This document shows, one piece after another, positions 46,309 to 46,556 of a stretch of DNA of 64,000 bases (positions within the stretch are counted from its first letter, which is position 1; each line of letters begins with the position of its first letter). This DNA comes from a virus (Duplodnaviria > Caudoviricetes): IMG/VR virus record IMGVR_UViG_3300027365_000007. One strand, written 5' to 3'. A program made the translations under genes and the position numbers. The notes under the pieces are model-generated. The model searched no databases and was not told where the DNA came from. It was given only the letters and a program-made list of their open reading frames with translations.

Positions 46309-46556
46309 CATTAATGTTCGAACAGAGTCGTTAATTCTGTCCCGTTCTCTTATGAACTGCTGTATGTTACCATACAAGATCAGACTATATCATCAACCAT
46401 ATTGGTTGCTCCCCTTTTCCACTCACTTGAGTGTACGTCTTACGACTAGTCGTTGAACCTTCCCGTTTGGGCTTGGCTGCTGATTGTCCTTATAGGAGTT
46501 CCCAGCAATTAAAGGAGTTATTCGACATATATTACTATATGAAGGCGCAGTACTTT
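46309..46556 (-). ncRNA. ORF-less group I intron (248 nt) in polB motif B
   Basis: P AATTGCTGGGAA, Q AATCAGCAG, R GTTCAACGACTA and S GATATAGTC. The 5' exon ends in U and the intron ends in G. Splicing restores N-A-L-Y-G. Confidence 0.93.

Follow-up and report, generated by a model that had tools for sequence, protein, structure and literature searches.

The minus strand at positions 46309-46556 of the window (the whole 64,000-nucleotide stretch of viral DNA analyzed here) very probably carries a 248-nt group I intron of subgroup IA2, which sits in motif B of a family B DNA polymerase gene (polB), would be spliced at GCGU|UGUAC, and has probably spread recently. A group I intron at this position had been proposed from the letters of the sequence; the proposal is upheld by a match to the Rfam model RF00028, by the reading frame across the junction, and by the same intron at the same site in an independent metagenome contig, L121. 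The intron is unremarkable within its family, which is widespread in phages, and its kind is already known.

The interrupted polymerase gene

The window lies within a 93 kb IMG/VR virus record that is estimated to be 21% complete and has the 440-kb Salicola phage SCTP-2 as its closest named relative; the host of the polB intron is an uncultured giant T4-related phage near SCTP-2. A minus-strand open reading frame of 570 codons (46555-48267) contains the Pfam domains DNA_pol_B_exo1 and DNA_pol_B and is closed by a TAA straight after ...KKINLNA, and the downstream minus-strand frame (45788-46309) opens with YGALLNKYCRFYDKR. The first exon is 61% identical to the SCTP-2 polymerase and 81% identical to that of L005, a 239-kb IMG/VR contig; the layout of exons, inteins and nuclease gene given here was derived from alignments to these two relatives.

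46557..48267 (-): polB exon 1, 570 codons and one further base that opens a Leu codon, ending ...KKINLNA in motif B (ORF, Pfam, homology)
46309..46556 (-): very probable ORF-less group I (IA2) intron, 248 nt (RF00028, nrdB homology, fold, covariation)
45788..46308 (-): polB exon 2, the last two bases of the Leu codon, YGALLN...IIYGD, then the N-terminal half of a split intein (ORF, alignments, Pfam)

Alignment to T4 gp43 structures places the intron between S562 and L563, within the motif B signature KxxxNSxYG. The sequence-only reading had equated this site with the classic pol-b intein position, which is correct for the motif and incorrect for the bond. The motif-B inteins Tli Pol-1, Psp-GBD Pol, Tko Pol-2, Tag Pol-2, and Mja Pol-2 are inserted at LAN|S(Y/V)YG, with the Asn codon on one side and the Ser-equivalent codon on the other (PMC3359363); the intron lies 4 nt downstream of LAN|SYYG and follows AAC GCG U, the first base of the next codon, rather than splitting the KxxxN|SxYG bond. 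Intein sites in PolB comprise DFR|SLYP, LAN|SYYG, and YAD|TDGF (supplement of PMC3359363), and archaeal PolB inteins occur in motifs A, B, and C (PMC4148896; PMC549080). The archaeal pol-b inteins thus occupy the same KxxxNSxYG motif of a family B polymerase; they differ from the window intron in being protein-splicing elements, not RNA.

Group I introns in phage polymerase genes have long been known, and DNA polymerases are typical targets of these elements (reviewed in PMC3984707). Described cases include the family A polymerases of SPO1, T7-like phages, Bastille, and Pf-WMP3, and the PolB of crAss-like phages of the Delta and Zeta groups (PMC7886860 for the crAss-like PolB introns). As in those cases, the interrupted gene is that for a tailed-phage replicative polymerase, and the insertion falls in a conserved catalytic region. 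In contrast to most of them, which encode a homing endonuclease (the crAss cases were found via nuclease domains), the window intron encodes none; it differs further in its giant T4-related host and in sharing its gene with two inteins.

These inteins lie in motif C (YGDTDS), which is doubly interrupted (window 43349-46144, minus strand). The first element is a split intein after YGD, its N half ending exon 2 at 45788 and its C half opening the next ORF at 44866; a 290-aa ORF for a Vsr-like or PD-(D/E)xK-like nuclease (44856-45728) lies between the two halves, 0.6 kb downstream of the intron. The second is a contiguous mini-intein after TD that ends ...GILVHN|SSYF. Elsewhere, motif C of SCTP-2 contains one contiguous intein at YGD|TDS, and that of L005 contains none. 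With two inteins in motif C, this one essential enzyme would need RNA splicing, protein trans-splicing, and protein cis-splicing. The polB gene cannot be called correctly unless the intron is removed; as they stand, the ORFs read as a truncated enzyme.

Core elements and covariation of the intron

A check against the Rfam group I model, as the sequence-only reading had suggested, returned a match to RF00028 at 46360-46566 on the minus strand that covers the full length of the model (positions 1-253) with 95.0 bits and an E-value of 3.2e-23, compared to a gathering score of 50; neither the window nor the 93-kb record contains a second RF00028 match. The conserved P, Q, R, and S elements noted earlier are present in the sequence and, together with the helices, yield the following arrangement, in order from the 5' exon to the 3' exon (intron numbering counts from the first intron nucleotide).

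46557..46560 (-): P1 exon strand GCGU, predicted 5' splice site after U46557 (exon-guide covariation)
46545..46553 (-): internal guide region, GUAC 46553-46550 (candidate P10 strand) and GCGC 46548-46545 (P1 3' strand)
46526..46541 (-): P2 hairpin CAUAUA GUAA UAUAUG (RNAalifold, single-sequence fold)
46511..46517 (-): P3 5' strand, partner 46409-46415 (covariation)
46478..46507 (-): P4-P5 domain with the P and Q elements (Rfam, covariation)
Intron 47-58 (-): P element AAUUGCUGGGAA (direct reading)
Intron 72-82 (-): Q element AAUCAGCAGCC (direct reading)
46457..46477 (-): P6/P6a hairpin with a short closed loop, the position of the I-TevIII ORF in the RB3 nrdB intron
Intron 99-111 (-): R element GUUCAACGACUAG (direct reading)
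46447..46451 (-): P7 5' strand GACUA, in the R element (pairing across homologues)
46420..46446 (-): P7.1 (46437-46446) and P7.2 (46420-46433) hairpins, an IA2 hallmark (Rfam, covariation)
46409..46415 (-): P3 3' strand (covariation)
46394..46408 (-): P8 hairpin (covariation)
Intron 166-175 (-): S element GAUAUAGUCU (direct reading)
46383..46387 (-): P7 3' strand UAGUC, in the S element (pairing across homologues)
46360..46378 (-): P9 hairpin (Rfam, covariation)
46320..46357 (-): P9.0-like GUUC/GAAC element and P9.1 hairpin, containing most of the 20-mer GCAGUUCAUAAGAGAACGGG (covariation)
46309 (-): terminal (omega) G, predicted 3' splice site after it (direct reading)
46304..46307 (-): exon-2 GUAC, proposed P10 partner, with no change in any intron-bearing allele seen

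The Rfam match runs only as far as P9 (46360); beyond it, the 51 nt down to 46309 form P9.0/P9.1 and are homologous to the T-even nrdB intron until 5 nt short of the 3' splice site. A 29-nt insertion between P7 and the 3' strand of P3 in the Rfam alignment corresponds to P7.1 and P7.2, both supported by covariation, and the presence of these two hairpins at this place assigns the element to subgroup IA2; P2 and P9.1 complete the set of IA2 features, and the element is homologous to the T-even nrdB intron. The description of the intron as ORF-less also stands: the sense-strand frames within the 248 nt all measure at most about 45 codons, which leaves no room for a nuclease gene, and no intron-encoded homing endonuclease ORF was found in these 248 nt, P6 being a short closed hairpin.

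Folded as a single sequence, the intron has a minimum free energy of -63.6 kcal/mol (z -2.74), and this fold yields P2, P3, P4/P5, P6, P7.1, P7.2, P8, P9, and P9.1. Covariation was assessed in an alignment of 23 sequences, comprising the window intron, the ORF-less T-even nrdB intron, and 21 ORF-less relatives drawn from more than 113 IMG/VR contigs that share an exact 20-mer in P9/P9.1, the invariance of which is uninformative by selection. RNAalifold predicted 54 pairs in the 23 homologues, 41 of them with compensatory changes, including five covarying pairs in P3. The P7 pairing claimed earlier, GACUA (46451-46447) with UAGUC (46387-46383), is pseudoknotted and therefore falls outside the RNAalifold prediction; counted by script, it is paired in all 115 of 115 cells across the 23 homologues, with changes on both sides at two positions (U-A to C-G and C-G to U-A), compared to only 24-45 of 115 when the 3' strand is slid by 1-3 columns. 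The strands of P3 and P7 interleave, as expected of the group I pseudoknot. Between the window intron and its counterpart in L121, six of 11 differences amount to three compensatory pairs: in P3, U46:A142 is G:C in L121; in P8, A151-U161 is G-C; and in P9.1, C218-G234 is U-A. These changes argue for selection on the RNA structure within the very lineage that resides in polB.

The shared 20-mer (GCAGTTCATAAGAGAACGGG, 46338-46357) spans the P9-P9.1 junction and is identical in the window, in the T-even nrdB introns, and in more than 113 viral contigs; the loci that bear it (L008-L120) lie in many different genes, and its flanking helices vary freely. A role as tertiary contact is possible.

Splice junction and predicted splicing

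P1 is formed as had been proposed, by exon GCGU (46560-46557) and intron GCGC (+9 to +12, 46548-46545), with U46557.G46548 as the wobble pair at the splice site. Located immediately 5' of P2, the guide covaries with the 5' exon of the respective intron in at least seven host contexts across the family (including the exon/guide pairs UCGU/GCGA, CCGU/GCGG, CUCUU/GGGAG, CGCUU/GGGCG, GCGUU/GACGC, and GGAAU/GUUCC), which supports this assignment. The proposed P10 holds in part: GUAC (+4 to +7, 46553-46550) does complement the exon-2 GUAC at 46307-46304, but as a 4-nt palindrome it is the weakest item of the set, and the pairing could be due to chance. The nucleotide at 46309 is G on the RNA strand, and the in-frame TAA at the 5' junction is found at 46557-46555, where the exon-1 frame ends.

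Joining U46557 to U46308 gives AAC GCG U|UG UAC GGU, which encodes KKINLNALYGALLN (KKINLNA|LYGALLN); U46557 with G46309 is the sole U/G junction that keeps the frame, giving NALYG. The intronless SCTP-2 polymerase aligns without a gap across this junction (KKIMLNALYGALLNKH; 61% identity over 744 residues), and L005 contains a clean 929-aa polB that reads KKINLNALYGALLNQH...YGDTDSSYF..., with neither intron nor inteins; an Rfam search of L005 likewise found no intron. A further 80 related polB loci in IMG/VR include 78 that are uninterrupted through motif B. The predicted junction GCGU|UGUAC is therefore supported by its intronless relatives, which encode NALYG. A scan of IMG/VR for the exact-junction 17-mer returned L006 and L007, both chance matches with no intron.

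Splicing would begin with the pairing of guide GCGC and exon end GCGU into P1, whose U.G wobble marks the splice site; a guanosine held in P7 would attack after U46557, and the freed exon would then attack after G46309, possibly aligned by the GUAC/GUAC P10. Unspliced RNA would be translated only up to the UAA that spans the 5' junction, and a full polymerase would consequently need splicing. Self-splicing catalysis by the intron itself is likewise a prediction. The T4 nrdB intron, a near relative, self-splices in vitro, and splicing of T4 td in vivo depends on ribosome behavior at the early stop codon of the intron. The td case, together with the stop-at-junction arrangement in the window intron, raises the alternative that the window intron is spliced in vivo at the same junction but non-autonomously, needing a protein cofactor (a chaperone or maturase-like protein) or translation and failing with GTP alone. 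The shortness of P1, only 4 bp, would agree with such dependence; the behavior of the nrdB intron speaks against it, as does a complete core with the stabilizing periphery of P2, P7.1, P7.2, and P9.1, and on balance cofactor dependence appears improbable.

Less probable still, and very unlikely in our estimate, is a decayed, non-splicing relic that leaves the polymerase either non-functional or made as two polypeptides, one from exon 1 to the TAA and one from exon 2 starting at GTG 46309. Several observations make this worth considering: the GTG (46309-46307) is in frame with exon 2 and coincides with the terminal G, T4-related phages tolerate split gp43 genes (PMC2677866), and L121 as well as L165, a locus with a different motif B intron, seem to carry a further upstream break in the same gene. 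However, a break at this position would split motif B among its conserved residues and lose the Leu codon, and no Shine-Dalgarno ribosome-binding site precedes the GTG; every core helix is intact with the full Rfam model matched, three compensatory double changes separate the window intron from that of L121, and the exon-2 protein is 87% identical between the two where the DNA is 76% identical. That the intron is real but uses a junction other than GCGT|TGTAC is the least credible alternative, extremely unlikely even though another G lies 2 nt downstream at 46307 and the Rfam model falls short of the 3' end, since only U46557 with G46309 is in frame with NALYG (G46307 shifts the frame), the junction sequence is identical in L121, and the 5' site is fixed by the family-wide exon-guide covariation.

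Relatives, probable lateral spread and site choice

The nearest named relative of the window intron is the T-even nrdB intron, with about 79% identity on both core halves and on the P9-P9.1 tail. The two share the P1 exon GCGU and guide GCGC, the U|AA stop at the 5' junction, and both P7.1 and P7.2; in nrdB the exons meet at UUUGCGU|GUACC, the intron begins with AAAAUGCGCC, and GUAC likewise opens the 3' exon. They differ in location, ...SFA|C... of nrdB vs. motif B of polB, and in the P1 loop, which is 3 nt longer in the window intron and includes the GUAC able to pair with exon 2. In the RB3 nrdB intron, the I-TevIII ORF in P6 separates the two halves, whereas P6 of the window intron is without insertion or ORF. 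Shigella phage SP21535 (PQ615101.1; L003:597-896) has the T-even nrdB intron in an ORF-less form of 300 nt; its record leaves this intron unannotated and lists each of the two nrdB exons as a hypothetical protein of its own.

In the intron tree, the window intron is sister to that of L121 and then to that of L029, and does not group with nrdB. The L029 intron (L029:9117-9370) is the closest relative outside polB; it is ORF-less and interrupts a radical SAM gene within the CxxxCxxC motif (CNYRCS|YC), and the guide GCGA of this intron matches exon UCGU. Family introns can be closely spaced: in one IMG/VR contig, L090:3844-4913 (minus strand) contains three ORF-less members within about 1.1 kb, with exons of about 20 and about 210 nt between them.

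A 23-mer scan of JGI metagenomes produced one true match, L121, with a 249-nt intron at the identical polB site, a motif C free of inteins, and no nuclease gene. The intron is 95.6% identical between window and L121, compared to 91% for the final 45 nt of exon 1 and 76.4% for the initial 165 nt of exon 2. The intron with both exon flanks was also recovered on DNA contigs from a marine metagenome (23 kb), from brine (1 kb), and from a source-like subsurface metagenome; these show about 6 substitutions in the intron vs. at least 19 in 125 nt of exon 2. Altogether, the intron is present in the window, in L121, and on contigs of runs X1, X3, and X5, and absent from SCTP-2, L005, and 78 other loci. 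Lateral spread typically leaves such a pattern, in which an intron is far younger than the gene it occupies and close relatives have empty sites, and the window intron has probably spread recently between diverged polB alleles, as judged from these sequence comparisons.

Without a nuclease of its own, the intron would depend for its spread either on guide-directed reverse splicing or on a trans-acting nuclease whose cut falls at the insertion site or close to it. The Vsr-like nuclease gene at 44856-45728 was considered as the mobilizing agent and rejected for the transfer between the window and L121 alleles: L121 lacks the motif-C inteins and the nuclease, and exon 2, only 76% identical, was not co-converted, so that neither hitch-hiking on the Vsr-like gene nor long-tract co-conversion from it is supported for that transfer. 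The window intron resembles previously described systems (PMC2790892; PMC3984707) in that an ORF-less intron persists and apparently spreads with free-standing nuclease-like genes nearby; the missing co-conversion of exon 2 between window and L121 does not fit mobilization by the Vsr-like gene. A nuclease that cuts right at the insertion site, as in collaborative homing (PMC3984707), is possible, and so is reverse splicing, a route for which the review literature reports no direct experimental evidence. The polB genes form a natural series in this respect, with an empty site; the intron only; an intein only; intron, two inteins, and nuclease gene; and a second intron lineage 3 nt away. Within this series the nuclease-less intron is clearly younger than its host gene, and comparison of its members could show whether ORF-less introns move through reverse splicing or through homing of the collaborative or trans type.

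The second lineage is represented by L165:2217-2498 and L166, two IMG/VR loci that are identical over the 430 nt compared. They contain a different ORF-less IA2 intron in polB motif B, of 282 nt, which scores 96.7 bits and is 64% identical to the window intron. Its site, AAC AGU GCG U|AC GGA (NSA|YG), lies one codon (3 nt) downstream of the window site and also directly follows GCGU, with the guide GCGC; the tree joins it weakly to the nrdB intron and not to the window intron. As a separate lineage, it implies that motif B of this polB clade has been invaded at least twice, each time at a GCGU.

Three IA2 introns with guide GCGC thus occupy three sites: GCGU|GUACC in nrdB, GCGU|UGUAC in the window and L121, and GCGU|ACGGA in L165 and L166. 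The three GCGU sites, together with transfer between polB alleles that are 24% diverged without co-conversion of the exon, fit guide-directed reverse splicing or a site-exact nuclease. The proposition that the 4-nt guide, and not a nuclease, dictates site choice in this intron family is put forward only tentatively, and we consider it rather unlikely. As a caveat, the repeated GCGU sites could alternatively reflect a filter, such that only guide-matching insertions splice and survive.

Upstream of the intron, the polB piece of L121 (L121:1-460) has a new leader, MGEFMTIDVNELYK, and does not start until about 65 codons ahead of motif B; it is preceded by an unrelated ORF without family match. 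PHROG scans of the partial ORF at L121:1-267 and of the 68-aa polB leader gave no matches, and an IMG/VR search for relatives of the upstream ORF and of the C-terminal part of polB found none. The polB of L165 has a similar leader, MIDIEHIRSLIKSND, and the marine 23-kb contig (run X3) contains 1420 other letters at the matching place (window 46599/46683). The pattern in L121, the marine contig, and L165 suggests that a further insertion has fractured the gene a short way upstream of the intron.
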